DNA of 33,888 nucleotides from Fimbriimonadales bacterium. GTDB lineage: Bacteria; Armatimonadota; Fimbriimonadia; Fimbriimonadales; JABRVX01. The notes below the pieces were generated by a model. The model saw only the letters and a program-made list of their open reading frames with translations, had not been told where the DNA came from and did not search any database. Each line of letters opens with the position of its first letter. The first letter of the stretch is position 1. Position numbers and translations under genes: made by a program. Below, piece by piece: positions 9,969 through 26,225 of this stretch. The stretch covers positions 1-33,888 of the forward strand of contig BTVI01000034.1 in assembly GCA_045862955.1 (NCBI GenBank). The letters are read 5' to 3'.

Positions 9969-10036
9969 GCGGAACAGCCTACCCGAAATCCGGCTGCGGT
10001 GCCGCGCGAGCGGGTGTTAGCGGGTATCTTTTGCCT

Positions 10037-11329
10037 ATGCGCTGGGCGGTGTTCGGCCTCTGTCTTCTTGCTGCCGCCACGATTCTGGGCGGCTGTCTTC
10101 GTGAATCGGGGCAGGATGGCGGCAGGATCGTGCTCCGCATTGCCGACTGGGGCGGCGCGTCGGATGACGATGAGTTCAATCGCGTGAACCGTGAGGTGTA
10201 CGCTACGTTCGAGCGCATGCATCCGGGCGTCGAGCTGAAGATCGAGCACATTCCAGGTTCGCAGGAGTACGTCTTCAAGCTGCTAGCGCAGCACGTCGCG
10301 GGCACGGCACCGGACGTAGTGTTTCTAGATGCCTCCTCGTCCGCTGCTTTCATCAATAACGGCGTAGTGACGGATTTGACACCTCTGATCCGCGAAGACC
10401 CGGAGTTCGACCCCAGCATCTTCTTCCCCAACGTATACGACATCGCGCGAAGAGGGAATAAGGTGTACGCGTTGCCGGGGAACTTCACGCCTATGGTGGT
10501 GTACTACAACAAACGCGTGTTTCGCGAACGGGGCGTGCCCTATCCGGAGGAGGGTTGGACGTGGGACGATTTCCTGCGGACATGCCAGGCGTTGAGTGAT
10601 CCGGCCCGCGACCGCTATGGGTTCTACTTCGTCAATTGGATGCCGGGGTGGATCACTTGGATATGGCAAAACGGTGGAGACGTGCTAAGCCCGGAGGGCA
10701 CCCGCGCGACTGGCTACCTCAACGGTCCACGCACCGTGGAGGCCGTTCAGTTCTTCACCGATCTCGTGTCGAAGTACCGAGTAGCACCTACCATCTCGGA
10801 GAGCGCGGCGACGGGCACGAACCTGTTTCAGAGCGGCGAAGCCGCCATGGAGATCAGCGGCCACTGGGCGATCGTCGGCTACAAGGCAGCCGAGTCGGAG
10901 AAGTTCCGATTCGCTGACCTGGGAGTGGTAGGGCTGCCTCGTCATCGTCAACGCGTAACCGTTATGTACGAATCCGGTCCCGCCATCACGCGTCAGTGTA
11001 GGCACCCGAAGATGGCATGGGAGTTCATCAAGTATTTCAGCGGAGCCGAGGTGCAGGACAAGCTGTGTGGCAGCGGTCTCGCGATCGCTGCCGTGCGCGC
11101 CGTCGCGGAGGCTAGGCGCCATACCAGTCCTCTAGAGCCAGTGTTCCTGCGCGAGATTCGGTATGCGCGTGCGCCGTGGGGCGCAGAGGTCGAAGGTTAC
11201 GCATATGTGGAGGACGTAGGAAGGGATGCCATCGAACGAATCCTGATCGGCAAGGTGCCCGTGCAGAAGGCACTCGACGACGCGGCTCGCAAGATCGATC
11301 ACAAGCTTTTCGGGCTGGCAGGGCGCTGA
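10037..11329 (+). CDS. Sugar ABC transporter substrate-binding lipoprotein (CUT1 family)
   Basis: Lipobox ILGG-C, AGTAPDV, VYYNK.VF, WTWDDFL and FQSGEAAM.ISGHW. Confidence 0.92.
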   Translation: MRWAVFGLCLLAAATILGGCLRESGQDGGRIVLRIADWGGASDDDEFNRVNREVYATFERMHPGVELKIEHIPGSQEYVFKLLAQHVAGTAPDVVFLDASSSAAFINNGVVTDLTPLIREDPEFDPSIFFPNVYDIARRGNKVYALPGNFTPMVVYYNKRVFRERGVPYPEEGWTWDDFLRTCQALSDPARDRYGFYFVNWMPGWITWIWQNGGDVLSPEGTRATGYLNGPRTVEAVQFFTDLVSKYRVAPTISESAATGTNLFQSGEAAMEISGHWAIVGYKAAESEKFRFADLGVVGLPRHRQRVTVMYESGPAITRQCRHPKMAWEFIKYFSGAEVQDKLCGSGLAIAAVRAVAEARRHTSPLEPVFLREIRYARAPWGAEVEGYAYVEDVGRDAIERILIGKVPVQKALDDAARKIDHKLFGLAGR

Positions 11330-12213
11330 TGGGCGAGCGACCGAACTGGCGCGGGTACCTGTTTATTCTGCCCGCCTTCGCTCATCTAGCAGTGTTCGCT
11401 CTCATACCCATCGTATACGCCGCATTCCTCAGCCTGCACCGTTGGAACATCCTGAAGGAGGGAAAGCCGTACGTCGGGCTAGGGAACTACCTCTTCCTCT
11501 TCCGGGATGCCGAGTTCTGGAATGCCATGTGGAACTCCGCACGGTTCGCGCTGATGAGCGTACCTGCTGGTATGGTGGTAGCGTTGGTAGTGGCCATTCT
11601 GGTAAACCAGAAGCTGCGCGGCGTGACGCTCTTTCGTACCATCTTCTACGTTCCTGCCATCAGTTCCGGCGTCGCCATCTCGATGGTGTGGATATGGATC
11701 TACCTGCCGCGTAACGGCCTGATCAACTTCACCGCGCAGCTGCTCGGCTTCTCTGGGACTACCGATTTTCTGAACGACCCCACACTGGCCATGCCTGCGT
11801 TGGTTTTTATGAGTATCTGGGTAGGATTGGGTCCTAGGATGGTGCTGTTCCTCGCAGGCCTCGCAGCTATCCCCCAGTCGTTCTATGAGGCGGCGCAGGT
11901 GGACGGCGCCACGCGGTGGTCGTCGTTTCGATACGTGACCATACCGCTTCTCCTTCCTACCACATTCTTCGTGCTCGTAACGAGCACGATCTCCGCGCTG
12001 CAGGTGTTCACGCCCGTTTACATGATGACGAAGGGAGGACCACTCCAGACGACCGATGTAGTGGGCTACCACATCTACAACCAGGCATGGCGGCAATTCG
12101 AAATGGGGATGGCGAGCGCTCAGTCCTACATCCTCTTCGCACTCGTACTGGGCATCACGCTGCTGCAATTCAAGTTCCTGAGTAAGCGGCTCCAGGGGTT
12201 CAGCATCGAATGA
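11329..12213 (+). CDS. Sugar ABC transporter permease (MalF/UgpA-like)
   Basis: YVGLGNY, FRTIFYVP and EAA loop YEAAQVDGA. ATG overlaps the upstream TGA (TGATG). Confidence 0.93.
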   Translation: MGERPNWRGYLFILPAFAHLAVFALIPIVYAAFLSLHRWNILKEGKPYVGLGNYLFLFRDAEFWNAMWNSARFALMSVPAGMVVALVVAILVNQKLRGVTLFRTIFYVPAISSGVAISMVWIWIYLPRNGLINFTAQLLGFSGTTDFLNDPTLAMPALVFMSIWVGLGPRMVLFLAGLAAIPQSFYEAAQVDGATRWSSFRYVTIPLLLPTTFFVLVTSTISALQVFTPVYMMTKGGPLQTTDVVGYHIYNQAWRQFEMGMASAQSYILFALVLGITLLQFKFLSKRLQGFSIE

Positions 12214-13031
12214 GAGCGATGATCAGCTACGTTATCCTGATCCTCTTGGCGGTGGCACTGCTCGCACCGTTCGCGTGGATGGTAGTAGCATCGCTCCATC
12301 CATCCAAGGCAGCGCTGCCCTCGCCGGCCAATCTGATGCCTCCGGACGGCAAGTGGCACTTCGAGAACTACCTCAAAGTACTGACGATGCCGGACATCCC
12401 CTTCTGGCGTTTTCTGGCGAACACCTCGTTCGTTACCGTGGTAGTAGTCATCGGCCAGCTCTTCGTCAGCTCGCTCGCGGCCTATGGCTTCTCGCGCATG
12501 CACTTCTGGGGGCGGGACCTGCTCTTCTTTCTGTTCATCGCGACCATGATGATCCCCGGACAAGTGACCATGATCCCGGTGTTCATCCTCGTCCGAAACT
12601 TCGGCTGGCTGGACACCTATTGGGCACTCATCGTTCCGGGTTTGTCTAGTGCATTCGCGATCTTTCTGCTACGCCAGTTCTTTCTCGGCATACCGAAGGA
12701 ACTGAGCGAAGCCGCCCGCTTGGATGGCTGCGGAGATTTCGGCATCTACTGGCGAGTGGCGCTGCCACTCACCAAGCCCGCACTGGCGACCCTCGCGGCT
12801 TTCAGCTTCGTGGCAACATGGACCGACTTCTTCTGGCCCCTGCTGGTAACCAGCTCCATGGAGATGCGCACGCTCGAGGTGGGCCTGTCGGTGTTCAAAG
12901 ACTCGTTCGGCGGTACGAACTGGCCCCTGCAGATGACAGCTGCGGTGATCGTACTGATACCCGTGCTGATCGTGTTCCTGTTCACACAGCGGTTCTTCAC
13001 CCGCGGCATCGCGCTGACGGGAATGAAGTAG
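12210..13031 (+). CDS. Sugar ABC transporter permease (MalG/UgpE-like)
   Basis: FLLRQFFLGIPKELSEAARLDGC, WTDFFWPL and QRFFTRGIALTGMK. ATGA overlap with the upstream gene. Confidence 0.93.
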   Translation: MRAMISYVILILLAVALLAPFAWMVVASLHPSKAALPSPANLMPPDGKWHFENYLKVLTMPDIPFWRFLANTSFVTVVVVIGQLFVSSLAAYGFSRMHFWGRDLLFFLFIATMMIPGQVTMIPVFILVRNFGWLDTYWALIVPGLSSAFAIFLLRQFFLGIPKELSEAARLDGCGDFGIYWRVALPLTKPALATLAAFSFVATWTDFFWPLLVTSSMEMRTLEVGLSVFKDSFGGTNWPLQMTAAVIVLIPVLIVFLFTQRFFTRGIALTGMK

Positions 13032-13034
13032 CCT

Positions 13035-14168
13035 CTAGTGTCCCGGCGGCGGAGTCTCTAGCAGGCCCTTCAGTGTCATCAGGCCGATCATCAATATGAT
13101 CAGCATGCCAGCTACGATCACCCATTGCCTTCGCGCCGGGTGACGCGACTCCGAGCGGTCCAACCATGGTAGCAGGAACATGCCGACCGTGACCAAACCA
13201 GGCACTATCACGGTTGCCACCACTTCCCAACCAGACGGCATGATCTTCAGCAGCTCGTACAAACCGAGGAAGTACCACTCGGGCCGAGGCGAGAAGTCCG
13301 TGCCGGTCGGGTCGGCAATGGCTTCTAAGCCAGGCGGCAGCGCCAGGGCCAGCGCGATGACCGCTCCGACGCCGAACAGGAGCACCACGGCGTCTTTGAA
13401 TAGCTGCGTGGGATAGAAAGCCACGGGCTTGCCTTTCTGCGGCATGACGGGACCAGCGATGTGATGCCGACGCACCAGGTACAGGTGCAGGGCCACGAGG
13501 AAGACCAGCGCTGCCGGCAGCAGCATGATGTGGATCGCGTAGAAACGTGTCAGCGTCAGTGCACCGACTTCCGGACCACCGCGAATGAGATGTAGTAGCG
13601 ACTCTCCGATGAACGGAACAGTGGCCGCAATCCTGGTACCCACGACCGTGGCCCAGTACGCCTTTTGGTCCCAAGGCAGCAGATAGCCGGTGAACGAGAA
13701 TCCGAGGATCACGTTGAAGATAATCACGCCTACTACCCATGTTAGCTCGCGCGGCTTCTTGTACGATCCCCAGAAGAACACACGCAGGGTGTGCAGCACG
13801 GTTACGATCACGATCGCCGTCGAACCCCACACGTGCAGTCCCCGCACGAACGACCCGAAGGTGACGTTCTCTGTTATGTGCTTGACGCTCTGATGAGCGT
13901 GGTCCGGACTCGGGGAGTAGAACATCGCGAGTGCTACACCTGTTACGAACTGGAAAATCAACAGGGTCAGCAGCAGGTTGCCCAGCGTCTGCCACCATCC
14001 GACTCCGGGCGGCATGGGTTCGTCCAGGTTCTTCCGCACGAAGCCCCACCAGCCCAAGCGGAGGTCCAGCCAGTCCTTGAGGCCAGGCCGAGCTACGCGA
14101 AGCTCGGCTTCCGGTGTTAGATCCTCGGTGCGTGTTTCGACCGGTCGTTCCGGCGTCAAAGTTTTCAT
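13035..14168 (-). CDS. qcrB: Cytochrome b of a Rieske/cytb complex (b6 + subunit IV-like, unsplit)
   Basis: Heme His pairs in RGLHVWG...VLHTLR and AIHIMLLP...ALHLYL. Also SYKKPRELTW, TGYLLPWDQKAYWA, TLTRFYAIH and Qo motif PEWY. Confidence 0.93.
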   Translation of the reverse strand: MKTLTPERPVETRTEDLTPEAELRVARPGLKDWLDLRLGWWGFVRKNLDEPMPPGVGWWQTLGNLLLTLLIFQFVTGVALAMFYSPSPDHAHQSVKHITENVTFGSFVRGLHVWGSTAIVIVTVLHTLRVFFWGSYKKPRELTWVVGVIIFNVILGFSFTGYLLPWDQKAYWATVVGTRIAATVPFIGESLLHLIRGGPEVGALTLTRFYAIHIMLLPAALVFLVALHLYLVRRHHIAGPVMPQKGKPVAFYPTQLFKDAVVLLFGVGAVIALALALPPGLEAIADPTGTDFSPRPEWYFLGLYELLKIMPSGWEVVATVIVPGLVTVGMFLLPWLDRSESRHPARRQWVIVAGMLIILMIGLMTLKGLLETPPPGH

Positions 14169-14169
14169 G

Positions 14170-14679
14170 CTACGCCTCCCTATACACCCAGACTCGTCCG
14201 CCCTCCACTTTCACTCTTGCTCGCTCGAGCGGCTTGGGGGGTGGACCGGATACCACGTTGCCGGATGCGTCGAACACCCCGCCATGGCACGGGCAAAGGA
14301 AACGACTCTTCTCGGGCTGATACCTGACACGGCAGCCGAGATGTGTGCAGGCCGGGTCCAACGCAATCACCCCGTCCTCATTCCGCCGCAGGTACAGGGT
14401 GTACTTGCGGTCGGCCAGCATGAACCCGTCCTGAACGCGAACGCTGAACGTGACTTCCTTCATCTCGCCCGATGGTAGGTCGGCATCGTTGGCGATGGGA
14501 ATCCACTTCCCGCTACGTCGTTGGCGAAGGGGAGATGCCACGAAGCCTAGAACCGGGCCGAAGACGGCGAGTAGTAGTGCCCCATTGATGAGGCCCACTG
14601 CCCAACCCAGCAGCTTCCGCCGCTCGGGCTGTTCTACCTGTTGGCCTTCTCCGTTCTTGCTAAGGTCGGCTGCGCACAT
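14170..14679 (-). CDS. qcrA: Rieske [2Fe-2S] protein (QcrA/PetC-like) with Tat-type anchor
   Basis: CTHLGC and CPCHGG boxes, GPPPKPL, and N-terminal ERRKLL followed by a TM helix. Confidence 0.93.
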   Translation of the reverse strand: MCAADLSKNGEGQQVEQPERRKLLGWAVGLINGALLLAVFGPVLGFVASPLRQRRSGKWIPIANDADLPSGEMKEVTFSVRVQDGFMLADRKYTLYLRRNEDGVIALDPACTHLGCRVRYQPEKSRFLCPCHGGVFDASGNVVSGPPPKPLERARVKVEGGRVWVYREA

Positions 14680-14697
14680 AGTTCTGTCCTCTCAGTA

Positions 14698-15831
14698 TCA
14701 CGGGTAGTATCGTAGGCGTACTTTGGCCTTCGTGCCAGGCTCCAGCGTTCTCATCACGCCTTCGGCAATTCGAAGCGACTTGTGATGTCTGCCGGGTGAG
14801 GGTTCGCGAAGGAATGCCAGATCGCCGGATGCGGCCACGTTCTCAGTCAACCGAGTCAGTGCAATCATCAACGGCACGATCCAAGCGTGCATGAATCGTG
14901 TGTAGGGGGCGGTCAACACCAGCAAGGAAACCGAAGCCAGGTGATACAGATACACCGTCATCACCCAGTCGGCGATTCCAGCTCGCTTGATGACGACTGT
15001 CAGGAAGCCGCTCAGCACCGTGTGGAAGAGAAGGTTGACGAACAGGAAGTCGCGACCTTGCGTCAACCCGTTGTCAATGAACTCGTCGGAGCGGTACCGG
15101 TATTGCACGTAGAACATGCCTAACATCACCGATAGACCGGAGACGATGGGGAGGAGCTTCAGTGGATTGTAGAGTGGGAGAGTGCCGCGCGTCGGGTTGA
15201 AGATCGCCATCAGAATGTCTGCTGCCAGCAGTCCGAGGAAGCCGTAGAAGACTAGGCCGTGCATCACCCATCGGAAGCGGTTCCGTCGGTACAGCGAAGC
15301 CACGCAGAGGCCGTCGACGACGAGCGAGCGTAGTACGATCCAGGCGGAGCGCGCAACTCCCAATCGCCTGATGCCCGGCCACAAATACCCGATGGCAGCC
15401 AACCTGAGCCAGTATAGGGTGACGGGAATGGAGAGCAGAAAGGCCGCGCCGAACACTACGAAGAAGATGATGCCCACATTGCGTGTGCTGAGGAACTGAC
15501 CCACCTTATATGCGATAGGAATCAGCTCCGGGCGCCACGGTTTCTTGCGTAACTCATCGTATATTGCGCGAACCTCGGCATCGGACGCCTGTGCAGTCGT
15601 CGTCGCGGGCATCATACCCTTGCCTTCGCGCACGGTCTTGTGAAACTGTTCGTATGTCAGTTTCGTCTTGGCGATCGGTGGGCCGAGACCACCCATCGCC
15701 GATTGTCCGTGACATCCCATACAGTTCGACGTGGAGTAGTGGTCGCTCTCCGTGGCTCGCGGTAGCTGACCCCAGGCTGTCGTCGCCAACAGAATGGTTA
15801 GGAGCGCAACGCTACACGCTAACAGTCTCAT
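14698..15831 (-). CDS. Fusion of a periplasmic class I cytochrome c and a NarI (nitrate reductase gamma)-like membrane domain
   Basis: Sec signal (ATTAWG-Q), CMGCH heme motif and distal Met GKGMMP. About 5 TM helices follow, with RWVMHGL and HLASVSLLVLTAPYTRFMHAW (H-x17-H; compare NarI PFSRLIH). Confidence 0.8.
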   Translation of the reverse strand: MRLLACSVALLTILLATTAWGQLPRATESDHYSTSNCMGCHGQSAMGGLGPPIAKTKLTYEQFHKTVREGKGMMPATTTAQASDAEVRAIYDELRKKPWRPELIPIAYKVGQFLSTRNVGIIFFVVFGAAFLLSIPVTLYWLRLAAIGYLWPGIRRLGVARSAWIVLRSLVVDGLCVASLYRRNRFRWVMHGLVFYGFLGLLAADILMAIFNPTRGTLPLYNPLKLLPIVSGLSVMLGMFYVQYRYRSDEFIDNGLTQGRDFLFVNLLFHTVLSGFLTVVIKRAGIADWVMTVYLYHLASVSLLVLTAPYTRFMHAWIVPLMIALTRLTENVAASGDLAFLREPSPGRHHKSLRIAEGVMRTLEPGTKAKVRLRYYP

Positions 15832-16519
15832 GGCCCTCTCTCTCCTCCACGGTGATCGCCCCCTCCAGTCCCAACACGGATGGCATCTGGTCGGACATAG
15901 TGGCTAAGTAACAGCCTGCCGGTTCGGTACCTGCTTCGGGTAGCAGGTGGAATGGCTCCCTCTTGGTCGCATCCTTCTGCTCGGCGATGTAGCGTGATAT
16001 CTCGCTTTCTGGGTCCTCGAGGTCCCCGAAGATTCGCGCTTTCGTCGGGCAGGACACGACGCAAGCCGGTTCCAGGCCGATGTCTACACGGTGCGCGCAA
16101 TAGGTGCACTTGCGTGCCACGTTCTCATTGAGCCTCGGTCTCACGTACCGCGTCTCGTACGGCTCATCGTCCGGAAGGTACCAGCGGTCTTGCGAAGTCA
16201 GGTAGATGTTGCCATACGGACAGGCCGTGACGCATGCGCCTGTTCCGCGGCAGCGGTCTTGATCAATCAGCACGATGCCGTCCGGACGCCGGAAGATCGC
16301 CTTGTTCGGGCAGCTTTTGAGACACGGTGCGTTGTCGCAGTGGTTGCACAACACCGGTACGTACACGCGCTTGACGTTCGGAAACTCCCCCGCCTCGATG
16401 TTCAGCACGCGTGCGAAGAAAACGTCAACCGGAGTGCCGTTCTCCTGCTTGCACGCCATCGTGCACGTATCGCAGCCGATGCAGCGCGTCAGATCAATCA
16501 GCATGGCCATTCGTGCCAT
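15812..16519 (-). CDS. Four-cluster Fe-S beta subunit of the molybdoenzyme (DmsB-sized, with NarH-like [3Fe-4S] site)
   Basis: CIGCDTCTMAC, CNHCDNAPCLKSCP, CRGTGACVTACP and CTYC...CVVSCP..ARIFGD. ATG lies 1 nt after the alpha-subunit stop. Confidence 0.9.
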   Translation of the reverse strand: MARMAMLIDLTRCIGCDTCTMACKQENGTPVDVFFARVLNIEAGEFPNVKRVYVPVLCNHCDNAPCLKSCPNKAIFRRPDGIVLIDQDRCRGTGACVTACPYGNIYLTSQDRWYLPDDEPYETRYVRPRLNENVARKCTYCAHRVDIGLEPACVVSCPTKARIFGDLEDPESEISRYIAEQKDATKREPFHLLPEAGTEPAGCYLATMSDQMPSVLGLEGAITVEEREGHETVSV

Positions 16520-16520
16520 C

Positions 16521-18959
16521 TCAGTCGACCCTCCGAATGTCCACACGAGTGTCCTTCCAGTGTTGTCCCGGAGCGTACACCGCTGGCAGGTAGTAGTTCT
16601 CGTGAGTGGGTTTTACTTTTTGGTGGGTGTGCACACTGTGGTACTTGCCACCGCCGAGATAGCGGTCCCACCAGCCATGATCCACGCACAACACGCCTGG
16701 CTTGATGCCCTCGGTCACCAGCGCCCACAGCCTGTAGGACCCATAGTTGTTGAATATCTCTACCTGGTCGCCGTCACGTATGCCTTTCTTTGCGGCGTCG
16801 CGAGGGTTGATCTCTACCACTGCACCGCGATTCAGGTTCAGCAGAGCGGTATTGTTGCTATGGGTGGAGTGCACGCGCCACTTGGAGTGCGGAGTAACGA
16901 TAGCGAACGGCAAGCGCTGATCCTCCTCGGGCAGGTGCTCGAAGGACGGGCGGTAGATAGGTACCGTCTCACCCAACTTCTGGAAGACGTCCTCCTCCTT
17001 ATAGAACTCCATGCGGCCGGTCTTCAGAAACTCGCGTTGCGCCCCCTCCGGGAACGGATAGGCTCGCGGGGGGAACGGCTTGAACTCGTGGATCTGCTCA
17101 TCTAGGCCACACTCCGGGTCCGGCACCTTCAGCCGAACGGGTCCCTGCCTGAGCTGCTCGAGCGTGATCCCTTCGCACTCCTTGCCACCTTTTTCCAGTA
17201 GGATGCGAATTGCCTCGCTCTCGTCCGGCTCCATCATGGGCAGCAGGCTCGCATCCACCCTGCGTATCAATTCCCGCGCGATCCACAGCTCGGTGCGGCT
17301 CTGGTGCCTAGGAGGTATCACTTCTTGCTGAATCTGAAGATACGGGTGACAGCTAGTGCCTACCAGGTCCATCTTCTCCCAAAACGTAGGAGCAGGCAGC
17401 ACCACATCCGAATACTCGCAGGTAGGTGACATCGAAAAGTCGATGGTGACGAACAGCTCCAGGTTGTCAATCGCGCGCTTCATCGGCTCCGAGAACTCCG
17501 TAACCAGGGGGTTCCCGTGCGAGACGAACAGAGCCTTGAACCCATGTTGCGGAAACTTGATCTTCGGGTTGATCGTTCCCGTCGGTTTTCCTAGCACGAA
17601 GTAGTGCATCGGCACCATGTTCGGCCGCTTCCCCTCGGGAAACCAGTAGCCGCTCACGTCTATCCGGAAGTGATGCTGGCCGGAGTAGATGGACACCGAC
17701 TCTCCCGGCTTGCCGTGTGCGCCGGCCAAGGCGGATAGTAGCAAGATTGCGCGGATGGTCAGGTCCCCATGCAGGCGATGGTTGATGCCCATCCCGATGA
17801 TGATGGAACTCGGTCTTCGAGTAACATACTCACGCGCAACCTCGCGTATCGTGTCGGCAGGTATGTCGGTGATACGTGCTACGTTCTCGGGGGAGTACTC
17901 TTCTCGCATGATCACGTCTTCCAATAGCTGGTAGACCGGAGTCACACGCACCTTCTGGCCTTCCACCTCGACCTCGCGCGTGCCGGCGAGAGAGAGGCGC
18001 ACACCCTCGGGCAGCCGCAGCGTCTCCGATGGCAGCTTGAACAGCGCGTGGGTAGCTTCATCCCAGGCCATGAACTCCATGTCCGATCCCATCCCGACAT
18101 CGGAGGCCCGTAGGCGACGCCCGTTGTCCTCGCGGATGAGTGTCGGGCAATCGGTGAAGGTGCGCAGGAAGTCGCGATCAACGAGATCCTCTTGCATCAC
18201 CACTTGACACATGGAAAGCGCGAGGGCACCGTCCGTGCCGGGGTTGATGGGTAGCCACAGGTCGGCGCCCTTCGCGGTCTGACTGCACCGGGGGTCTATG
18301 CAGACGATCTTGCAGTCGTTGAGCTGTTTCGCGTATTGGGTCAGAAACTTCGCGTCGGGGATGCGGGTCTGAAAAACGTTGCTCGACCAGAGGATCGCGT
18401 ATTTCGCGTGTGCCCAGCTTTTCGTCTCGCACTCCACGCAGTCGATGCCGACCGTGTGCGTGAACCCCATCGAGATGTCGCCGTTGAAATCGTACGCGGT
18501 GGCAAAGGACATACCAAGGAGCGCAGCCATGCGAATCTGCGCGCCCTTCTGGACATAGCTGGTGCCGACGACCTGGTTGAAGAGCAGCATACTCTCCGGG
18601 CCGTAGTTGTCCCGGATGCGGATCATCCGTTCGGCGATGTAGTCGAGCGCCTCGTCCCACGTCGCGGTCTTCCATTTCCCCTCGCCGCGTTCACCGGTTC
18701 GAATGAGCGGAGTGCGGATGCGGTCGGGGCCGTAGATCAGGTGGGTCATCGCCTGACCGCGCAGGCAGCCTCGGGGGTTGTAGTCGGCGCAAGGGTAGTC
18801 GGCCGCGGGCTTCAGGTCGACGATGTCGTCGTTCACCACCGTGGCGAGCCAGCCGCACGCACCCGTACAGTTCGGGCTGTCCGTCGTGCGAACTACTCGC
18901 TCTTCTCCCTGCGGAGCCTCTTGCTTGGCTCTACCAGGTACCCGATACCGCGTTGCCAT
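16521..18959 (-). CDS. Mo-bisPGD oxidoreductase catalytic subunit, DMSO reductase family type II (NarG/NxrA/PcrA-related), no Tat signal; probably a nitrate reductase
   Basis: FS0 motif DSPNCTGAC...NPRGCLRG. Mo-ligand motif YDFNGD (compare NarG YDWYCD). Also YSDVVLPA, TGRMEFY, TPHSKWRVHS and NPRDAAKKGIRDGD. NarK and Moco genes nearby. Confidence 0.9.
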   Translation of the reverse strand: MATRYRVPGRAKQEAPQGEERVVRTTDSPNCTGACGWLATVVNDDIVDLKPAADYPCADYNPRGCLRGQAMTHLIYGPDRIRTPLIRTGERGEGKWKTATWDEALDYIAERMIRIRDNYGPESMLLFNQVVGTSYVQKGAQIRMAALLGMSFATAYDFNGDISMGFTHTVGIDCVECETKSWAHAKYAILWSSNVFQTRIPDAKFLTQYAKQLNDCKIVCIDPRCSQTAKGADLWLPINPGTDGALALSMCQVVMQEDLVDRDFLRTFTDCPTLIREDNGRRLRASDVGMGSDMEFMAWDEATHALFKLPSETLRLPEGVRLSLAGTREVEVEGQKVRVTPVYQLLEDVIMREEYSPENVARITDIPADTIREVAREYVTRRPSSIIIGMGINHRLHGDLTIRAILLLSALAGAHGKPGESVSIYSGQHHFRIDVSGYWFPEGKRPNMVPMHYFVLGKPTGTINPKIKFPQHGFKALFVSHGNPLVTEFSEPMKRAIDNLELFVTIDFSMSPTCEYSDVVLPAPTFWEKMDLVGTSCHPYLQIQQEVIPPRHQSRTELWIARELIRRVDASLLPMMEPDESEAIRILLEKGGKECEGITLEQLRQGPVRLKVPDPECGLDEQIHEFKPFPPRAYPFPEGAQREFLKTGRMEFYKEEDVFQKLGETVPIYRPSFEHLPEEDQRLPFAIVTPHSKWRVHSTHSNNTALLNLNRGAVVEINPRDAAKKGIRDGDQVEIFNNYGSYRLWALVTEGIKPGVLCVDHGWWDRYLGGGKYHSVHTHQKVKPTHENYYLPAVYAPGQHWKDTRVDIRRVD

Positions 18960-19075: not shown

Positions 19076-19402
19076 CTAACCCTCGCTAGACCGGGCGGCC
19101 AGAACTTCGTCTACCCAGCTGAGGCCGGCCATCATGTTCGGAAAGCCGACGGTGGTTGTGGCCTGAAGAGCGGCGTGTCGTATCTCTTCGGGGGTCGCGC
19201 CGGCTTCCAGGGCCCGACGCGTGTGGCTGCGGACCGCGCTCTCCATCCGCGCACCTACCGAGACGCCAATCTTCACCAGCTCGCGAGTCTTGGCATCCAG
19301 CGGGCCCGCATTCGCGACCGCCTCACCCAGCGCAGTGTATGCTGCTCCCACGTCGGGATAGTTCTTCAGGAACTCCGTGTATCGCTTCGGTAGCTTCTCC
19401 AT
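19076..19402 (-). CDS. Carboxymuconolactone decarboxylase (CMD/AhpD-like) family protein
   Basis: GPLDAKTRELV.IG, AVRSHTRRALEAGATPEEIRHA and TTVGFP. No CxxC. Confidence 0.88.
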   Translation of the reverse strand: MEKLPKRYTEFLKNYPDVGAAYTALGEAVANAGPLDAKTRELVKIGVSVGARMESAVRSHTRRALEAGATPEEIRHAALQATTTVGFPNMMAGLSWVDEVLAARSSEG

Positions 19403-19477: not shown

Positions 19478-20065
19478 GTGGACATCGAAGCTGCGTTGCT
19501 TACCGGTGGAGCGAGCCGGCGCATGGGGCGCGACAAAGCGACGCTCGACGTGCGAGGCCGCCCGCTGGCCGAGGTCATTGCGTCCCGTATCCTGGCCGTC
19601 GGCATCCCCGTCACGGTGCTTGGGCCAAAGCCGCTTCCAGGTTGCACTCTGCAGCAGGACATTTCGCCACACGAGGGGCCGCTCGTTGCGCTGAGCCGAT
19701 TCCAGCCTCGCGCGGACTTCCTCTTCGTCTGTTCGTGCGATCTACCGCTCTTCGATGCTCGAATCATCGAGGTCCTATCGGACCTTGTTGGGAACCGGGA
19801 CGCCGCCATCCCGCTGAGCCAGGGCCGACCACAACCTCTCTGCGCCCTTTACCTAGCCCGAGCGCTCGCAGGGCTATCCGAGTGGGTGAGGCAGGGGAGC
19901 CGACGCGTGATGGAGTGGATCGAAGCACTGGACTACATCGGGGTTTCGGAGGAGCATCTGGAATCGCGAGGACTGTCGCGCCACTGCGTGCGCCATGCAA
20001 ATACTCCGCAAGAGCTAGAGCTTCTACTTAGCTTAGGAGTAGCTCGTCCAGAACCTGAGGCTTGA
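19478..20065 (+). CDS. mobA: Molybdenum cofactor guanylyltransferase
   Basis: LLTGGASRRMGRDKA, GPLVAL, CSCDLP, QPLCALY and ANTPQEL. Confidence 0.9.
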   Translation: MDIEAALLTGGASRRMGRDKATLDVRGRPLAEVIASRILAVGIPVTVLGPKPLPGCTLQQDISPHEGPLVALSRFQPRADFLFVCSCDLPLFDARIIEVLSDLVGNRDAAIPLSQGRPQPLCALYLARALAGLSEWVRQGSRRVMEWIEALDYIGVSEEHLESRGLSRHCVRHANTPQELELLLSLGVARPEPEA

Positions 20066-20765
20066 GGATCGTAATGACCTGGTGGTCGGTGCAGGCTACG
20101 CCCTCCTTCTGCCATCGACTCATCACTCGAATGGCGGTCTCGACCGTGGTTCCCGCCATCTCGGCTAGGTCGGCCCGGGTGAGTGGGACGGTCAGTCGCG
20201 TGCCCTCGGGGACCTTCTCGCCGTAAGACAGCATCAGGATGAGCAGCACCGCAGCGATTCGGTGCTCGACCTTGCCGGTAGACATGCGGGCCATCATGTC
20301 GTGTGCTTTGCGCAGCCGCGGGGCCAGCGAGCGGAGCACCTGGTCGCGCAGGCCGGTGCTCTCGCGGTACACCTCTAGCAGCGCGGGCACCGGGATCTTC
20401 AGGTACCAAACGTCGGTCACCGCGACCGCGCTGAGCGGATAGACCCTGCCTTCGATGGCACTAAGAATCCCTGCGGCTTGTCCGGGTCCGAGCAGCTCCA
20501 CAGCCACCTCGCTACCCTGCGGCGTGGTCCGCGTCATCTTGATGAAGCCCGTTCCGACCACTGCCGCGAAGTGTGATGGTCCGCCCGCTACCCAGATGAA
20601 CTCGCCCCGACCCGCATAGGCGACGTAGGAAGCATCGGCTAGTGTGCGCCGTTCTTCGGGCCTGAGCGCGTTGAACAGCGAGCAAGCTTCGATCACCGCT
20701 ACGTTGCTCGGGCGGTCGGGCAGCTGCTCGGTGTCGTGTCTTCCGGACTGTTGGCTCGCACCCAT
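20028..20765 (-). CDS. Crp/Fnr family transcriptional regulator (DNR/NnrR-like, no FNR Cys cluster)
   Basis: cNMP-type domain (V.TGFIKM....QGSEVAVELLGPG, YPLSAVA) and HTH LTRADLAEMAGTTVETAIRVMS. Start set at ATG 20765; the longer ORF overlaps narK. Confidence 0.9.
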   Translation of the reverse strand: MGASQQSGRHDTEQLPDRPSNVAVIEACSLFNALRPEERRTLADASYVAYAGRGEFIWVAGGPSHFAAVVGTGFIKMTRTTPQGSEVAVELLGPGQAAGILSAIEGRVYPLSAVAVTDVWYLKIPVPALLEVYRESTGLRDQVLRSLAPRLRKAHDMMARMSTGKVEHRIAAVLLILMLSYGEKVPEGTRLTVPLTRADLAEMAGTTVETAIRVMSRWQKEGVACTDHQVITILKPQVLDELLLS

Positions 20766-20833
20766 CTGTCTTGCCCCCAAGGCGAGTTGGGGCCACCCCT
20801 TGCGCCTCTCTTCATCGTGGGCTACGCGTCGTC

Positions 20834-22159
20834 TCACTCGGCTGCCGCGGGAGCGGGGCTCGGCTGAGCATCCGCCGCGTGGATCCCCACACTCGCCTCC
20901 GCACGCTTCAACGACCTCACGACGGCATGTAGCCATATCAGGCTCACTCCAGTAACCGCAAAGATTACCCAGAACATGGACTGCGGTGAGCCGCTCCAAC
21001 GCGCAAGGTAAGCAAATAGCGGTGGCATGATGAACCCGCCGAGGGCCGCGAGCGCCCCGACCAACCCGACCACGGCACCGACGTCAAGCGGATAGTACTC
21101 CGGGATGTACTTTATCGTGGACGCCTTGCCAATCCCTTGGGCGATGCCGATCACCAGCACCATCGCTGCGAACGGATAGAGTCCGAGGGGGAGGAACAGC
21201 ACCGCCGATGCTAGCAGGCACGACGTGAACACCACATAGGTCACCCTGCGAGGCCCGAAGCGGTCGGAGAGGTAGCCGCCGAACGGCCGCAGTAGGCTGG
21301 ACGCCAGAATGAACGGCGTGGTGAGCAGCGCTGCGGTCGAAAGGGGCAGCCCATACACGTCCACGTAGTACTTGGGCAGCCACACCGACATCGCGACATA
21401 CGCGCCGAACACGACCGTGTAATAGAGGCTAAAACGCCAGACTCGCATCTCGCGCAACGGTCGCAGCATGTCGCCGAGTGGCCGATTCGCCGAGGGACGT
21501 CTATCCGGGCGAGGCGCCAGCCACCACATGAGCGTAGCCATGATGGCGATGAGGACGCTGTAGAGGAACGGGATAAATCGCCACCCACCCGGAATCAGTC
21601 CGCCCAGTAGCGGCACCGGGACGAGCGCCATCAGGCCCGGACCAATGAACTTAGTGATAGAGGCTCCCACGTTGCCCGCGCCGAACAGACCCATCGCAAA
21701 TCCCTGCTTTTCTTTCGGGAACCATGCGGCACACCACGCAGAGCCGACGGCGAAGCTGTTCCCCGCGATACCCACGAGGAAGGCCCCAAGAAGCAGCTCC
21801 GGGTATGTATTGGCCTTGCCGACCACGAACGAGGCAATCCCCGCGAACAGGAACGTGCCGAGGAACACGACCTTGCCCCCGAGCCGGTCGGAGAGGACGC
21901 CGAGCGCGAGCCGCCACACCGCGCCATTGAGGATAGCCACCGCAGTTAGCCACGCCAGTTGCTCGTCGGATAGCCCCAGCTCCTTTCGGATGGGCACGCC
22001 CAACACGCCGAACATCGTCCAGGCACCGAAGAGCAGGGTGAAACCCGAGAAGGAAAGCCACAACACACGGTTCCGCCGGCGGACGACTTCGGGTGAGTCC
22101 GGCGCGGACGGCCGGCTGGCGAGGGTCAGCTGATCACGGGATAGATTCGACTCAGGCAT
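20834..22159 (-). CDS. narK: Nitrate/nitrite MFS transporter, NarK1-type
   Basis: WTMFGVLGVPIRKELGLS, nitrate signature GIAGNSFAVG..W...WFPKEKQGFAMG.FGAGN, and RPFGGYLSDRFG. Confidence 0.88.
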   Translation of the reverse strand: MPESNLSRDQLTLASRPSAPDSPEVVRRRNRVLWLSFSGFTLLFGAWTMFGVLGVPIRKELGLSDEQLAWLTAVAILNGAVWRLALGVLSDRLGGKVVFLGTFLFAGIASFVVGKANTYPELLLGAFLVGIAGNSFAVGSAWCAAWFPKEKQGFAMGLFGAGNVGASITKFIGPGLMALVPVPLLGGLIPGGWRFIPFLYSVLIAIMATLMWWLAPRPDRRPSANRPLGDMLRPLREMRVWRFSLYYTVVFGAYVAMSVWLPKYYVDVYGLPLSTAALLTTPFILASSLLRPFGGYLSDRFGPRRVTYVVFTSCLLASAVLFLPLGLYPFAAMVLVIGIAQGIGKASTIKYIPEYYPLDVGAVVGLVGALAALGGFIMPPLFAYLARWSGSPQSMFWVIFAVTGVSLIWLHAVVRSLKRAEASVGIHAADAQPSPAPAAAE

Positions 22160-22225: not shown

Positions 22226-23569
22226 CTAGCAGGGCTTTTCGGCCCCTCGTCTGGTGTAGAACCAGTAGTTCAGGAGCAGGTTCGCTGCGTAGAAGGCCGC
22301 AGCTCCGAGGAAGAACGCCTGCGCGGAACCGGTTCGCGCGATGATCCAGCCGAACAGGACCGAGAAAGCGAACGGCCCGTAAGCCGCCACCGCGGATGTC
22401 CAACCGATGACGCCGCCGGCTTGCCGAGGCGGAAAGATCATCGGCATCTGCTTGAACGTGGACGCGTTGCCCACCCCGCTAAAGAAAAACAGCCCCAGCA
22501 TCAGCCAGAGGAACTTCGGCCAGTTCTCCAGGGAAGTAGGGGCAGTATAAGGACTGACCGCCAACGCACACACGAGCAGCCCGACGGCGCTGAACATGGT
22601 GACCCTCGCACCACCCAATCGGTCGCTCACGGGCCCGAAGAGGGCGCGCACCAGAGCCCCGACCAAGGGACCGAGGAATGCATACTTCAGAGGATCGGGA
22701 CCTCCCGGAAAGCCACCGTAGAGCTTCTTGATAAGCAGCGGGAAGGACGCCGCGTACCCGCTGAACGACCCGAAGGTCATGATGTAGAGCGACGTCATGA
22801 TCCACGTGTGCTTATCGCGAAAGATATCGAGTTGCTCGCGGAAGGACGCCCTGACCGGAACCCGTCGCAGTCCGAACCACGCCGCGATGGAGCACACCAC
22901 GATGAACGGAATCCATACGAAGGCCGCGTTCTGAAGCCAGATCTGTGACTCTTGGCCTTTGGCGGAGAAAGTCTGCGAAGACCCGACGAGACCGACGCCG
23001 ATGACCGCAGGGATGACGAACTGTGCGAGGCTAACGCCGAAATTGCCGATACCTGCCTGAATGCCGAGCGCCGTGCCCTGAAGTCGCTTGGGGAAGAACA
23101 ACGAGGTGCTGGGCATGAACGAGCTGAAGTTGCCGCCCCCCAGCCCCGCGAGGATACCGAGCAGCATGAAAGTGCCGTAGCTGGTGTCGGGGTTCATCAC
23201 CGCGAGCCCCCAGCCTATCGCGGGAATCAACAGCAGGAGCGTGGACACCGTGATGGTGTTGCGGGTCCCGAAGATGGGGATCAGGAACGTGTGCACGATC
23301 CGCAGCGTTCCGCCCGCAAGCCCGGGCATCGCGTTCAGCCAGAAGAGCTGCTGCGTGTCGAACCGATAACCGATCCCGGTCAGTTTCACCACGATGGCGC
23401 TGACCATGAACCACGTGGAGAACGAGAAGATCAGGGAGGCGGTGGTGATCCAAAGCGTGCGCCAGGCAAGACGGCTGCCGCCGGACTCCCAGCAAGCGGC
23501 ATCTTCCGGGTTCCAGGGGGTTGTACCTGTGGCGGTCCGAGGCTCTGCGACTATGGATTGTTGCGACAT
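22226..23569 (-). CDS. narK: Nitrate/nitrite MFS transporter, NarK2-type
   Basis: WNPEDAACWE..G..LAWRTLWI, GGGNFSSFMPSTSLFFPKRLQGTALG, YIMTFGSFSG and GVGNASTF. ATG 23569 with RBS AAGGAG. Confidence 0.92.
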   Translation of the reverse strand: MSQQSIVAEPRTATGTTPWNPEDAACWESGGSRLAWRTLWITTASLIFSFSTWFMVSAIVVKLTGIGYRFDTQQLFWLNAMPGLAGGTLRIVHTFLIPIFGTRNTITVSTLLLLIPAIGWGLAVMNPDTSYGTFMLLGILAGLGGGNFSSFMPSTSLFFPKRLQGTALGIQAGIGNFGVSLAQFVIPAVIGVGLVGSSQTFSAKGQESQIWLQNAAFVWIPFIVVCSIAAWFGLRRVPVRASFREQLDIFRDKHTWIMTSLYIMTFGSFSGYAASFPLLIKKLYGGFPGGPDPLKYAFLGPLVGALVRALFGPVSDRLGGARVTMFSAVGLLVCALAVSPYTAPTSLENWPKFLWLMLGLFFFSGVGNASTFKQMPMIFPPRQAGGVIGWTSAVAAYGPFAFSVLFGWIIARTGSAQAFFLGAAAFYAANLLLNYWFYTRRGAEKPC

Positions 23570-23617
23570 GGCGACTCCTTCGTGGCACCAGCATCGGCGA
23601 TGGGTGGGGATGATGGG

Positions 23618-23633
23618 TATGATACTCGTCATA
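23618..23633. promoter_or_regulatory. Crp/Fnr-type operator (narK2 side of the divergent promoter)
   Basis: TATGAT-ACTC-GTCATA. Confidence 0.72.
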
Positions 23634-23688: not shown

Positions 23689-23722
23689 TCTGGCGGTTAT
23701 GCGATTGAAGGAGAATCAGTTC

Positions 23723-24754
23723 ATGCCTGGCGGCGACGAACTAGCATCTAGCGGGAGAAACATCGCTGAGCGGTCACCACTGACCGACCGCTTTGGGCGA
23801 GTGCACTCCTATCTGCGCATCTCCGTCACGGACCGGTGCAACTTCCGCTGCGTCTACTGCATGCCGCCTGAAGGTATCGAGTGGCGTTGTCGCGAGGAAC
23901 TCCTGACGTTCGAAGAGATCGTCCGCCTGGCTCGTGTCTTTGTCCGCCTGGGCGTGGACAAGGTACGCCTCACCGGCGGCGAGCCGACGGTGAGGCGCGG
24001 CATCGAGAGCCTGCTCTCGGCCTTAGCAGGGTTGCCTGGCCTGCATACGCTAGCGATGACCACCAACGGATTCCGTTTGCGGGAACAGGCTCGGATCTAT
24101 CGTGAGGCGGGGCTGACGAACATCAACGTCAGCCTCGATTCACTGCGACGTGACCGGTTTGAGCAGATTACGCGGCGTGACGCGCTGGATGACGTTCTCG
24201 CCGGCCTGGATGCTGCGCTGTCTGTGGGTTTCCGGAAGGTAAAAATCAACACCGTGGTTATGGCTGGCGTGAACGACGACGAATTGCTCGACTTCGTAGA
24301 TCTGGCGCGTGACCGGCCACTCCACGTACGCTTCATCGAGTTCATGCCCTTCCATAACAACGGGTGGTCGGTGGGCGGTGTGTTCCCGCTGGCCCGCATG
24401 CGCGAGGTGATCGGGGGCAGATACTCTCTGGAGCCAGTGCGCGCCGAGCCGAACGCAGTCGCTCGTGAGTGGCGAATCCCAGGTTTCGAGGGCACCATCG
24501 GCTTCATCGCTTCGATGACGGAAAGCTTCTGCTCGGAATGCAATCGGATACGCTTGACCGCGGACGGGCAGATCAAGTCATGCCTCTTCTCGCCAGCGGA
24601 GAGCAACCTGAGAGACGTGCTGCGGACAGGCGCAAGCGACGATGAACTGGAGGCGCGCATTCGAACGGCACTGTGGCTGAAGCCCAAAGAGCACCCGCCG
24701 ATGGAAGTGCTTGCCGCGCAGGAGAACCGCAGCATGATCGAGATCGGGGGCTGA
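23723..24754 (+). CDS. moaA: GTP 3',8-cyclase
   Basis: YLRISVTDRCNFRCVYCMP, RLTGGEP, RFIEFMP, FCSECNRIR...C and C-terminal IGG. RBS AAGGAG before ATG 23723. Confidence 0.97.
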   Translation: MPGGDELASSGRNIAERSPLTDRFGRVHSYLRISVTDRCNFRCVYCMPPEGIEWRCREELLTFEEIVRLARVFVRLGVDKVRLTGGEPTVRRGIESLLSALAGLPGLHTLAMTTNGFRLREQARIYREAGLTNINVSLDSLRRDRFEQITRRDALDDVLAGLDAALSVGFRKVKINTVVMAGVNDDELLDFVDLARDRPLHVRFIEFMPFHNNGWSVGGVFPLARMREVIGGRYSLEPVRAEPNAVAREWRIPGFEGTIGFIASMTESFCSECNRIRLTADGQIKSCLFSPAESNLRDVLRTGASDDELEARIRTALWLKPKEHPPMEVLAAQENRSMIEIGG

Positions 24755-25982: not shown

Positions 25983-26224
25983 CCAAGCGCGTACGCGTGC
26001 GCTACTTCGCGCTGCTGCGGGAGGAGCGCGGTAGAGACGTGGACGAACTGGATACCAGTGCGCACACTGCTAGACAGCTGTACGAAGCGCTGCAGGCGAA
26101 GTTCGGTTTCAGCCTGCCGATGCGCCTGGTCGGAGTCGCAGTGAACGGCAGTCTGGTTACGATGGAGAGGGCGATCAGAGACGGTGACGAGGTGGTGTTC
26201 CTGCCACCGGTGGCGGGTGGATAG
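25979..26224 (+). CDS. moaD: Molybdopterin synthase sulfur carrier
   Basis: VRVRYFALLRE, VAVNG and DGDEVVFLPPVAGG (C-terminal GG). GTGA overlap with moeA. Confidence 0.93.
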   Translation: MTKRVRVRYFALLREERGRDVDELDTSAHTARQLYEALQAKFGFSLPMRLVGVAVNGSLVTMERAIRDGDEVVFLPPVAGG

Positions 26225-26225
26225 C

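Follow-up and report, generated by a model that had tools for sequence, protein, structure and literature searches.

In the textbook picture, a membrane-bound nitrate reductase oxidises quinol and moves 2 charges per 2 electrons. Here we describe five adjacent genes that encode a molybdenum (Mo) enzyme together with a heme c-bearing membrane protein, a Rieske protein and cytochrome b (cyt b), and we compare them with the described enzymes that resemble them most. They lie in a 33,888-nucleotide stretch of DNA (contig BTVI01000034.1; the whole stretch is called the window below) from an uncultured Armatimonadota (Fimbriimonadia) metagenome-assembled genome (MAG) of soil and wastewater, with a completeness of 97.55%.

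In the accessible part of the report on Streptomyces coelicolor, nitrate reduction by Nar1 in spores needs the bcc-aa3 supercomplex, the components co-purify, and the authors proposed that electrons pass from menaquinol to bcc, with a Q-cycle, and from QcrC to heme bD of NarI, a route that they judged energetically feasible (PMC7931247). For Thermus, NarC is described as the fourth subunit of the enzyme, bound to NarI and believed to pass electrons outward, with complex III repressed (PMC7694296, from the sections available). Haloarchaeal nar operons include Rieske and cyt b genes, and their enzyme faces outward (PMC4683180, in an excerpt citing earlier work), and in Campylobacter the periplasmic Nap is coupled to Qcr (PMC6195509, likewise in excerpt). 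The first-pass annotation of this DNA had put forward a cytoplasmic nitrate reductase fed by a bc complex as a new idea; in this it was anticipated by the Streptomyces work, as far as the available text goes (PMC7931247). What we propose as new, judging from the genes, is that the coupling would be encoded in one operon and in domain fusions. A literature search covering sources outside the subscription journals found no description of the present arrangement.

The locus and its closest described relatives

The five genes, referred to below as A, B, C, Rieske and cyt b, are as follows, with the evidence for each assignment in brackets.

16521-18959, minus strand: A, Mo-bis(molybdopterin guanine dinucleotide) (Mo-bisMGD) catalytic subunit, 812 aa (Pfam/NCBIfam, PcrA match, alignment, tree)
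15812-16519, minus strand: B, Fe-S subunit, 235 aa (PF13247, Cys groups)
14698-15831, minus strand: C, heme c and membrane protein, 377 aa (PF13442, fold comparison, hhalign)
14170-14679, minus strand: Rieske [2Fe-2S] protein, 169 aa (PF00355, motifs)
13035-14168, minus strand: cyt b, 377 aa (PF00033, PF00032)

With Escherichia coli NarGHI the encoded system appears to share a cytoplasmic, Asp-ligated Mo-bisMGD enzyme with an FS0 cluster, a NarH-type [3Fe-4S] pattern, a NarI fold with a pair of histidines on helix V, and a NarK gene alongside. It differs in the length of its alpha subunit (812 aa vs. 1,247 in E. coli) and of its beta subunit (235 aa vs. 512), in an FS0 Asp in place of His49, in the replacement of Y220 and E581, and in the position of alpha outside the Nar clade; moreover, it has no NarJ, carries a predicted periplasmic heme c on its membrane subunit, and includes Rieske and cyt b in the operon.

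The likeness to Thermus thermophilus NarCGHJI lies in a periplasmic c-type cytochrome tied to NarI in a cytoplasm-facing enzyme (PMC7694296, in part). NarC, however, carries two hemes, is anchored C-terminally and stands as a protein of its own, whereas here a mono-heme domain is fused N-terminally to the NarI-like domain, and the Thermus locus encodes canonical NarG, NarH and NarJ, with no bc genes in the 15 kb inspected. Haloarchaeal pNar, in turn, combines Rieske and cyt b with a type II Mo enzyme and an Fe-S subunit, but Haloferax NarG has a twin-arginine translocation (Tat) motif, SRRTFLEG, and faces outward, whereas A has no Tat motif; the Haloferax locus also encodes an EbdC-like heme b subunit and a TorD chaperone, has no NarI-like or heme c protein, and runs in the order Rieske-cyt b-NarG-NarH, with Rieske and cyt b upstream of narG, rather than A-B-C-Rieske-cyt b. 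Both contrasts, with Thermus and with the haloarchaea, had been drawn in the first-pass annotation and are borne out by these loci.

Streptomyces Nar1 shares the same proposed route, from bcc through a membrane-bound heme c and NarI heme bD to cytoplasmic nitrate. In Streptomyces the genes for a canonical NarGHI stand apart from those for a general bcc-aa3, and genetics and co-purification connect the two, whereas here the putative link lies in the genes themselves: a heme c is fused to the NarI-like domain, an apparently dedicated bc pair is c-less, and everything lies in one operon. The PcrAB and chlorite dismutase (Cld)-linked type II enzymes have the same Asp ligand and cluster motifs, and the closest solved structure by sequence is among them; they are, however, Tat-exported and periplasmic, with TorD, with soluble or tetraheme partners and with Cld alongside, whereas the window system has no Tat signal, no Cld, and a His in place of the gate residue W461. 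Finally, the nearest outside relatives of both A (44-47% identity) and B are the uncharacterised A-B-NrfD enzymes of Dehalococcoidia and Acidimicrobiia, which differ in having an NrfD/PsrC-type membrane partner, a NarJ/TorD-like chaperone and an FS0 Cys where the window has Asp, and which have no heme c, Rieske or cyt b.

Conservation of the operon

The genes are co-directional and, with the starts chosen here, are separated by gaps of 1, -20, 18 and 1 nt, in the layout and at the coordinates that had been reported at first; the start of B was taken as the ATG at 16519, the longest open reading frame (ORF) beginning at a GTG at 16546. Relatives of A fall into more than 100 clusters at 62-97% identity, of which those with names are Fimbriimonadia, Fimbriimonadales or Armatimonadetes MAGs; the five genes are real and conserved rather than chance ORFs.

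For the analysis of synteny we took 49 loci from species-representative genomes, whose labels agree with those of the close relatives of A and none of which is from a cultured host; 42 of them hold an A orthologue at ≥60% identity, and the 34 with at least 4.3 kb 3' of A were considered evaluable. The gene order A-B-C-Rieske-cyt b is kept in 31 of the 34 loci. We identified an A orthologue in 20 of 401 genomes that were sampled evenly across the phylum, and in 19 of these cyt b lies 2.5-3.5 kb downstream of A on the same strand. The first-pass annotation had made its reading depend on the linkage of Rieske and cyt b to the Mo enzyme in homologous clusters, and that linkage is thus upheld both among loci and among genomes. 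Orthologues of cyt b at ≥66% identity occur in 21 genomes, namely the 20 that hold A and one more (G177), with A adjacent in 19 of the 21, and the next best cyt b in the sample is only 54% identical. Because the cyt b orthologues coincide with the A genomes and are set apart by this gap in identity, the nar-linked cyt b is, on the sequence comparison, a distinct clade that travels with A. In the 20th A-holding genome (G345) the operon is split over the ends of separate contigs and appears degenerate, with a frameshift in B, an interrupted cyt b, and neither C nor Rieske present.

The molybdenum enzyme

Subunit A matches PF00384 (E 2.9e-54) and also PF01568. Its best NCBIfam model is TIGR03479, the type II DMSO reductase alpha subunit (Ser/Clr/Ddh/Pcr/Ebd), at 509 bits (below the cut-off of 984.75); against narG (TIGR01580) it reaches 260 bits (cut-off 1084), with a length well short of the ~1,240 aa of that family. 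In a MAFFT alignment of 10 sequences, D161 of A aligns with NarG D222, the Mo ligand, with the YDxxGD context kept, and H691 and H697 align with NarG H1092 and H1098. Comparison with NarG of E. coli, Thermus and Haloferax shows that N30 (N52 in NarG), R67 (R94), H394 (H546) and the three FS0 cysteines are also kept. The FS0 motif reads D27-x3-C31-x3-C35...C65; the Asp in place of NarG His49 is found in 4/4 Armatimonadota rows aligned, and a Cys stands there in three Chloroflexota/Actinomycetota relatives.

In a tree of 14 rows, whose references did not include PcrA, ClrA, SerA, DdhA, EbdA or NxrA, the Armatimonadota A sequences form a clade (support 99/100) that lies outside the NarG clade (100/100; E. 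coli, Thermus, Haloferax) and in a three-way polytomy with the A-B-NrfD clade; the alpha phylogeny that the first-pass annotation had named as a check is to that extent available, with the placement outside NarG as its outcome. Comparison with other solved structures gave 245 bits to ethylbenzene dehydrogenase, 223 to NarG and 121 to Kuenenia NxrA. Because of the scores, the residue differences, the position in the tree and the outside relatives, we regard A as a separate branch of the Asp-ligated group and not as a true NarG. The term Nar-like, first applied to the operon from its sequence, is loose: the narG score, the place outside the Nar clade and two altered active-site residues speak against it, the beta subunit is shorter than NarH, and a search for NarJ found none. 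As the nearest relatives outside Armatimonadota pair A and B with an NrfD-type subunit, the membrane module has been exchanged in Armatimonadota.

The cysteines of B fall into groups of 4+4+3+4, the pattern of three [4Fe-4S] clusters and one NarH-type [3Fe-4S] cluster, and the third group (CRGTGACVTACP; C90, C96 and C100) aligns to C217-C227 of E. coli NarH, the [3Fe-4S] motif. The match to NarH itself is low (TIGR01660, 83 bits; cut-off 524; 235 aa vs. ~500), and the best NCBIfam models are ArrB, TtrB and DsrO, every one of them below its cut-off.

Neither A nor B has a recognisable export signal. In A we found no RR motif and no hydrophobic stretch, and just 26 residues precede the first cluster motif; B has no signal peptide and begins directly at its first Cys motif, such that the TtrB, DsrO and NrfC profiles match it only from profile position 35-40 on. 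Domain scans of the cluster revealed no EbdC-like gene. A single polypeptide combines B and C in 14 of 35 loci, and such fusions are also annotated in public records; in all six that we inspected (6/6), an N-terminal Fe-S domain without a signal is followed by one transmembrane (TM) helix and then by CxxCH. It is well established that cells attach heme c solely on the outer side of the membrane. Because the fusions run Fe-S-TM-CxxCH and heme c is attached only outside, the arrangement shows, as read from the genes, that B, and with it A, is cytoplasmic and that B and C belong to one complex, a placement to which the missing Tat and Sec signals of A and B add. The Tat-less Mo subunit, its cytoplasmic orientation and the operon structure, as first described, are thereby supported.

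The membrane protein C

Protein C begins with a signal peptide or anchor (residues 3-21), which is followed by a class I heme c domain (PF13442, E 4e-12; C37-x2-C40-H41, M73/M74). Its membrane region matches QmoC and TcuB, both under cut-off, and BLASTP against E. coli and Thermus NarI gave only E 0.03-0.045. An AlphaFold2 model (pLDDT 84.7) and the positive-inside pattern together place the heme c in the periplasm, followed by five TM helices, an amphipathic segment in the cytoplasm and a C-terminal tail, conserved and basic, that is also cytoplasmic. A Foldseek search with this model returned nothing at E ≤0.001, its top matches being EtfD (0.045) and NarI (0.049). With VIA-align, Mycobacterium smegmatis EtfD (9ojn_A) ranks first (Z 12.2, 236 residues, rmsd 4.5) and NarI (1q16_C) fourth (Z 9.1, 185/224 residues, rmsd 5.6), Z values that by the tool's own note are middling for helical bundles.

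A profile of 56 C homologues aligned by hhalign with E. coli NarI at E 2e-4, with H297 at the place of H187 and H315 at that of H205 (YLYH297...RFMH315AW vs. FRLH187...RLIH205IW in NarI). In the 56 sequences H191, H297 and H315 are invariant, H270 is present in at least 90%, and D205, N212 and R215, on the periplasmic face, are likewise invariant. These comparisons indicate that C has a five-helix fold of the NarI/DsrM/HdrE/EtfD type, with a helix-V pair of histidines 18 residues apart in the PF(S/T)RxxHxW motif. Among 1.84 billion representatives, the C profile has 1,916 matches at E ≤0.001, mostly to the heme c part, and just 47 at E ≤1e-30; about ten clusters span both the heme c and the membrane parts. 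Variants with two, three or five heme c motifs occur among the relatives. Among ten distant relatives of C, two had a name and one of these a taxon, a Bacillota MAG.

The Rieske/cyt b pair and the missing cytochrome c1

The Rieske protein has an N-terminal anchor containing RRK and the motifs CTHLGC...CPCHG, which are invariant in 33 Rieske sequences. The cyt b is of the type in which b6 and subunit IV are fused, with heme histidines H112, H126, H213 and H228 and a PEWY Qo motif; the four histidines and PEWY are invariant in 31 cyt b sequences. By these residues the bc pair looks functional.

Cytochrome bc and b6f complexes include a c-type cytochrome (c1, f, QcrC, or one fused to cyt b), and the window cyt b has zero cysteines, hence no heme c of its own. 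The cluster has no CxxCH gene besides C, and in 28 of 31 nar-linked loci there is no CxxCH frame within 2.5 kb 3' of cyt b, in agreement with the first reading of the window, which had noted no separate cytochrome c1 gene. Conversely, all three of the sister-clade cyt b genes that we inspected (51-54% identity; 3/3) have 1-2 C-terminal CxxCH motifs, and in cluster-holding genomes all six second bc loci inspected (6/6) have a heme c fused to or beside cyt b. This pattern indicates that the present clade of cyt b lost a heme c that its relatives carry. Because the heme c of C is the only one in the operon, and because it is encoded directly upstream of Rieske, it is by elimination the likely stand-in for cytochrome c1.

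A three-chain prediction of cyt b, Rieske and C gave ipSAE values of 0.55, 0.55 and 0.54, with 0.00 for the best control; the runs share at least 71% of contacts, and the partners have a pLDDT of at least 72. The ipSAE mark is reached by 116 of 157 solved complexes and by 2 of 215 mismatched pairs, and among values up to 0.60 just 18 of the 157 solved complexes reach it, as do both mismatches. The prediction, made with custom alignments and by a model that possibly remembers solved bc complexes, gives weak support to a contact between cyt b, Rieske and C.

In the window genome we identified one cyt b, one COX1 and one membrane-type Rieske, with a second Rieske match in a 105-aa frame elsewhere. 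The single COX1 belongs to a caa3 oxidase that has a cluster resembling alternative complex III (ACIII) directly upstream (G000:C5:13611-26217). This cluster comprises a pentaheme protein, a 1,018-aa ActB-like protein whose Mo-oxidoreductase domain is of the TAT-variant kind (TIGR04519), and two polytopic membrane proteins, of which one is ActC-like and matches the NrfD family (DsrP) weakly and the other matches no family. Next come an unannotated 388-aa ORF, CoxB, which ends in a heme c motif, COX1, and a pair of small membrane ORFs assigned to COX3 and COX4 by position only, with a heme O synthase fusion nearby. Because COX1 sits with an ACIII-like cluster in this way, Rieske/cyt b would not be needed for oxygen respiration, and since neither NirK nor NirS was found in the genome either, the bc pair would have no other obvious client there. 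Of the 20 A-holding genomes, at least 9 have another bc complex, and in the loci inspected those complexes carry their own heme c. We rejected the possibility that the bc pair is the general complex III of the cell, given the ACIII beside caa3 and the other bc complexes. The second bc complex of some Armatimonadota (L069:2476-6811; L070:1-4125) has a cyt b fused to a domain with 15 CxxCH motifs, followed by an 11-heme cytochrome.

Proposed electron route and energy yield

We propose that the five genes would form one respiratory module, in which A and B would make up an Asp-ligated Mo-bisMGD reductase in the cytoplasm, seated on the inner side of C, and in which C would hold b hemes in its NarI/EtfD-fold domain and an N-terminal heme c in the periplasm. 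Rieske/cyt b would oxidise menaquinol by a Q-cycle and hand the electrons to the heme c of C, from which they would cross the membrane inward through the b hemes and the Fe-S clusters to Mo; the NarK-like proteins encoded nearby would import nitrate and also export nitrite, which would go onward to a periplasmic NrfHA for the dissimilatory reduction of nitrate to ammonium (DNRA). For the route as such, from menaquinol through Rieske/cyt b, the fused heme c, the b hemes and the Fe-S clusters to Mo and the cytoplasmic reduction of nitrate, we consider the chances to be evenly balanced. The same path had been drawn in the first-pass annotation, of which the parts, the topology and the linkage are confirmed; the route itself is what we infer from them, and the NarI-like domain may oxidise quinol.

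By our own book-keeping, the Q-cycle would release 4 H+ outside per 2 electrons and take up 2 H+ inside, which amounts to 2 charges, the transfer of these electrons inward, from heme c in the periplasm to Mo in the cytoplasm, would add 2 further charges, and nitrate reduction would use 2 H+ inside. The total would be ~4 charges per 2 electrons, compared to 2 for NarGHI, and the ~0.5 V between menaquinol and nitrate would make such coupling affordable, as was also argued for Streptomyces (PMC7931247). We therefore put forward, tentatively and at somewhat short of even chances, a hard-wired cytochrome c:nitrate oxidoreductase supercomplex with a dedicated Q-cycle bc module and ~4 charges per 2 electrons, which would be the first to have such coupling written into a single operon and into domain fusions.

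Should this hold, a cytoplasm-facing enzyme fed by a Q-cycle would double the energy yield of nitrate over NarGHI, and energy models of nitrate respiration and DNRA would change for soils and wastewater, where Fimbriimonadia are common. The operon would, in addition, lend itself as a natural model of the disputed, bcc-dependent Streptomyces Nar, and, with the coupling written into gene fusions and a conserved operon, a cleaner system for structural and bioenergetic work than Streptomyces spores. Standard annotation seems to miss the enzyme: in the parts available of two MAG studies, Armatimonadota or Fimbriimonadales MAGs are credited with only nrfA or with no nitrogen-cycle genes (10.1101/2023.08.15.553441; PMC13055281), and nitrate reduction by the phylum would be under-counted if such MAGs carry the operon.

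Quinol oxidation by C as an alternative

Several observations weigh against the proposed route. The match of C to the NarI family (PF02665) reaches 20.8 bits, under the threshold of 22.9 (E 3.3e-4), and covers residues 290-322 only. The position of NarI H66 is occupied in C by Leu201, ten residues on from H191, which is itself placed like NarI H56; H270, on another helix, is the sole other conserved TM His, so that the distal heme of C must use H270 or may be absent. The near-invariant K225 lies two positions from the quinone-site K86 of NarI in the hhalign alignment, and because of this C might itself oxidise quinol; to our knowledge, the characterised NarI, DsrM, HdrE and EtfD relatives all react with quinones. 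At three of the 34 evaluable loci (L017, L028 and L035), unrelated genes follow 3' of A, with no N runs there. In G177 (L058, C1:550001-566000), Rieske and cyt b are kept after the loss of A and B, and only the last 51 codons of C remain. A search of sequencing runs found 6 with part of the stretch and none with half of its words; the sole RNA-labelled run among the 6 shares only 0.07, and the four runs compared gave contigs of 151-433 nt at a depth of 2-9, none of them across two genes, with DNA carry-over possible.

The chief alternative, unlikely in our estimate yet a serious competitor, is that A-B-C is a self-sufficient quinol:nitrate oxidoreductase, with its heme c a side branch to or from periplasmic partners and with Rieske/cyt b a complex III for which that heme c doubles as c1. 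The NarI/EtfD fold of C, the lysine near the NarI quinone site and the invariant D205, N212 and R215 would all suit such an enzyme, as would the persistence of Rieske/cyt b in G177 and the precedent of Thermus NarC, a NarI-bound protein that is believed to deliver electrons outward to Nir and Nor (PMC7694296, in the text available). A side branch of this kind would, however, require an acceptor, and in the window genome neither NirK nor NirS nor a second heme-copper enzyme is there to serve as one, its NrfA has its own NrfH-like partner, and its oxidase has ACIII adjacent. The replacement of the quinone-site ligand H66 by Leu also speaks against direct oxidation of quinol by C, and the pairing of this cyt b clade with A in 19 of its 21 genomes (in G345 the two lie on separate contigs), along with another bc complex in at least 9 of the 20 A-holding genomes, would suit a dedicated role of the pair better than a general one.

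Genomic neighbourhood and substrate

Upstream of A lie genes for cofactor synthesis, regulation and transport, as follows.

19076-19402, minus strand: CMD/AhpD-family protein, 108 aa, just upstream of A
19478-20065, plus strand: MobA-like molybdenum cofactor guanylyltransferase
20028-20999, minus strand: Crp/Fnr-family regulator, with the true start probably further in (relatives match from ~residue 87)
20834-22159, minus strand: NarK-like major facilitator superfamily (MFS) transporter a (TIGR00886, 216.1 bits; cut-off 311.7)
22226-23632, minus strand: NarK-like MFS transporter b (TIGR00886, 303.1 bits; cut-off 311.7; NarU, 289 bits)
23699-24754, plus strand: MoaA
24759-25982, plus strand: MoeA
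26184-27896, plus strand: MoaE-ThiF/MoeB fusion, 570 aa, the large subunit of molybdopterin (MPT) synthase joined to an adenylyltransferase

TIGR00886 is the best family for both transporters, yet both are under its cut-off; the two NarK neighbours of the first-pass annotation are thus present, with this qualification, and 21 of the 42 related loci, as retrieved, include a NarK-like gene. Elsewhere in the genome (G000:C1:131433-133663) we identified an NrfA with 526 bits to PF02335 and four CxxCH motifs plus one CxxCK, with a tetraheme NrfH-like ORF upstream, and this NrfHA would be the end step of DNRA for the organism. Nitrate is, from this gene content, the most likely substrate, because NarK-like transporters, an Fnr-type regulator and molybdenum cofactor genes adjoin the operon, because a cytoplasmic active site needs the import of its anion, and because NrfA and the NrfH-like protein could clear nitrite while no Cld-family gene was found.

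Some observations count against a nitrate reductase. In the active site, A has N159 where NarG has Y220, and H429 where NarG has E581 and PcrA its gate W461. The closest solved structure to A is that of perchlorate reductase PcrA (4ydd, 385-386 bits), and the best plasmid relative of A (32% identity) adjoins a chlorite dismutase gene, in an island with further genes for TorD, a cytochrome c and a CMD-family protein. The search for a NarJ/TorD chaperone (PF02613) gave 0 matches in the genome at its completeness of 97.55%, and the FNR box TTGAN6TCAA has 0 matches in the window, where 0.31 are expected by chance, so that its absence is uninformative.

These results raise the alternative that the wiring is as proposed and the substrate is another, such as chlorate, perchlorate, selenate, or an S- or N-oxide. 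The structure match (PcrA above the 223 bits of NarG), the non-Nar type II family model TIGR03479, the Cld-linked plasmid relative, the two altered NarG residues and the position of the alpha clade outside the Nar clade would all be accommodated by it. We nevertheless consider it improbable, given the NarK-like transporters in the window and in half of the related loci, the adjacent Fnr-type regulator, the presence of NrfHA to clear nitrite, the His in place of the PcrA gate, and the toxicity that chlorite would presumably have in the cytoplasm. Nor was a Cld-family gene found anywhere in the 97.55%-complete genome. (Per)chlorate respiration in particular was rejected for want of a Cld-family gene.

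A module run in reverse, in which the Mo enzyme would oxidise nitrite or another compound, pass electrons through the b hemes and heme c to the oxidase and leave reverse electron flow to Rieske/cyt b, is permitted by a topology that suits either direction and recalls the Nitrobacter arrangement, in which a type II enzyme of the cytoplasm has a heme c partner in the periplasm (PMC7694296, in part), but we think it very improbable given the sugar-using heterotroph surroundings, the Fnr-type regulator and NrfHA, which point to anaerobic nitrate and nitrite reduction, and the weak match to Kuenenia NxrA (121 bits).

Other observations

In 12 of the 42 orthologous loci, A has a CMD/AhpD homologue in its vicinity, and a CMD gene is also present in the Cld-linked type II reductase island of the Alisedimentitalea plasmid (L075:10966-11277); the CMD/AhpD protein may be a shared accessory of Asp-ligated Mo reductases. 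At several loci a second small cluster stands beside the nar-like operon (L014:15332-18485 and L038:2396-5636, also in L027, L037 and L042), with genes for a distant Mo subunit (26-29% identical to A), an Fe-S subunit (~30%) and a protein with a Rieske domain (37-48%), which may be an arsenite-oxidase-like or an unknown enzyme. The window genome also encodes a second, Tat-exported Mo enzyme of 857 aa (RRMFLKTATAAAALGG) with an Fe-S subunit that has a Tat signal (G000:C33:2962-6394), probably a periplasmic reductase of the Psr/Ttr/Phs type.

Within the window, the respiratory island is flanked by a GH106 alpha-L-rhamnosidase of 1,209 aa with lectin-like and galactose-binding-like domains (1889-5518) and by a sugar-type ABC transporter (10031-13031), a combination that fits a polysaccharide-degrading heterotroph. 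Upstream of a NuoG-like gene elsewhere in the genome (G000:C14:5151-5744), we found an ORF made of tandem units of ~20 residues (SMTEQVGPRGLSIAECHNFF-like), and repeats in the style of this motif also occur in small ORFs elsewhere (L028:15727-16017).

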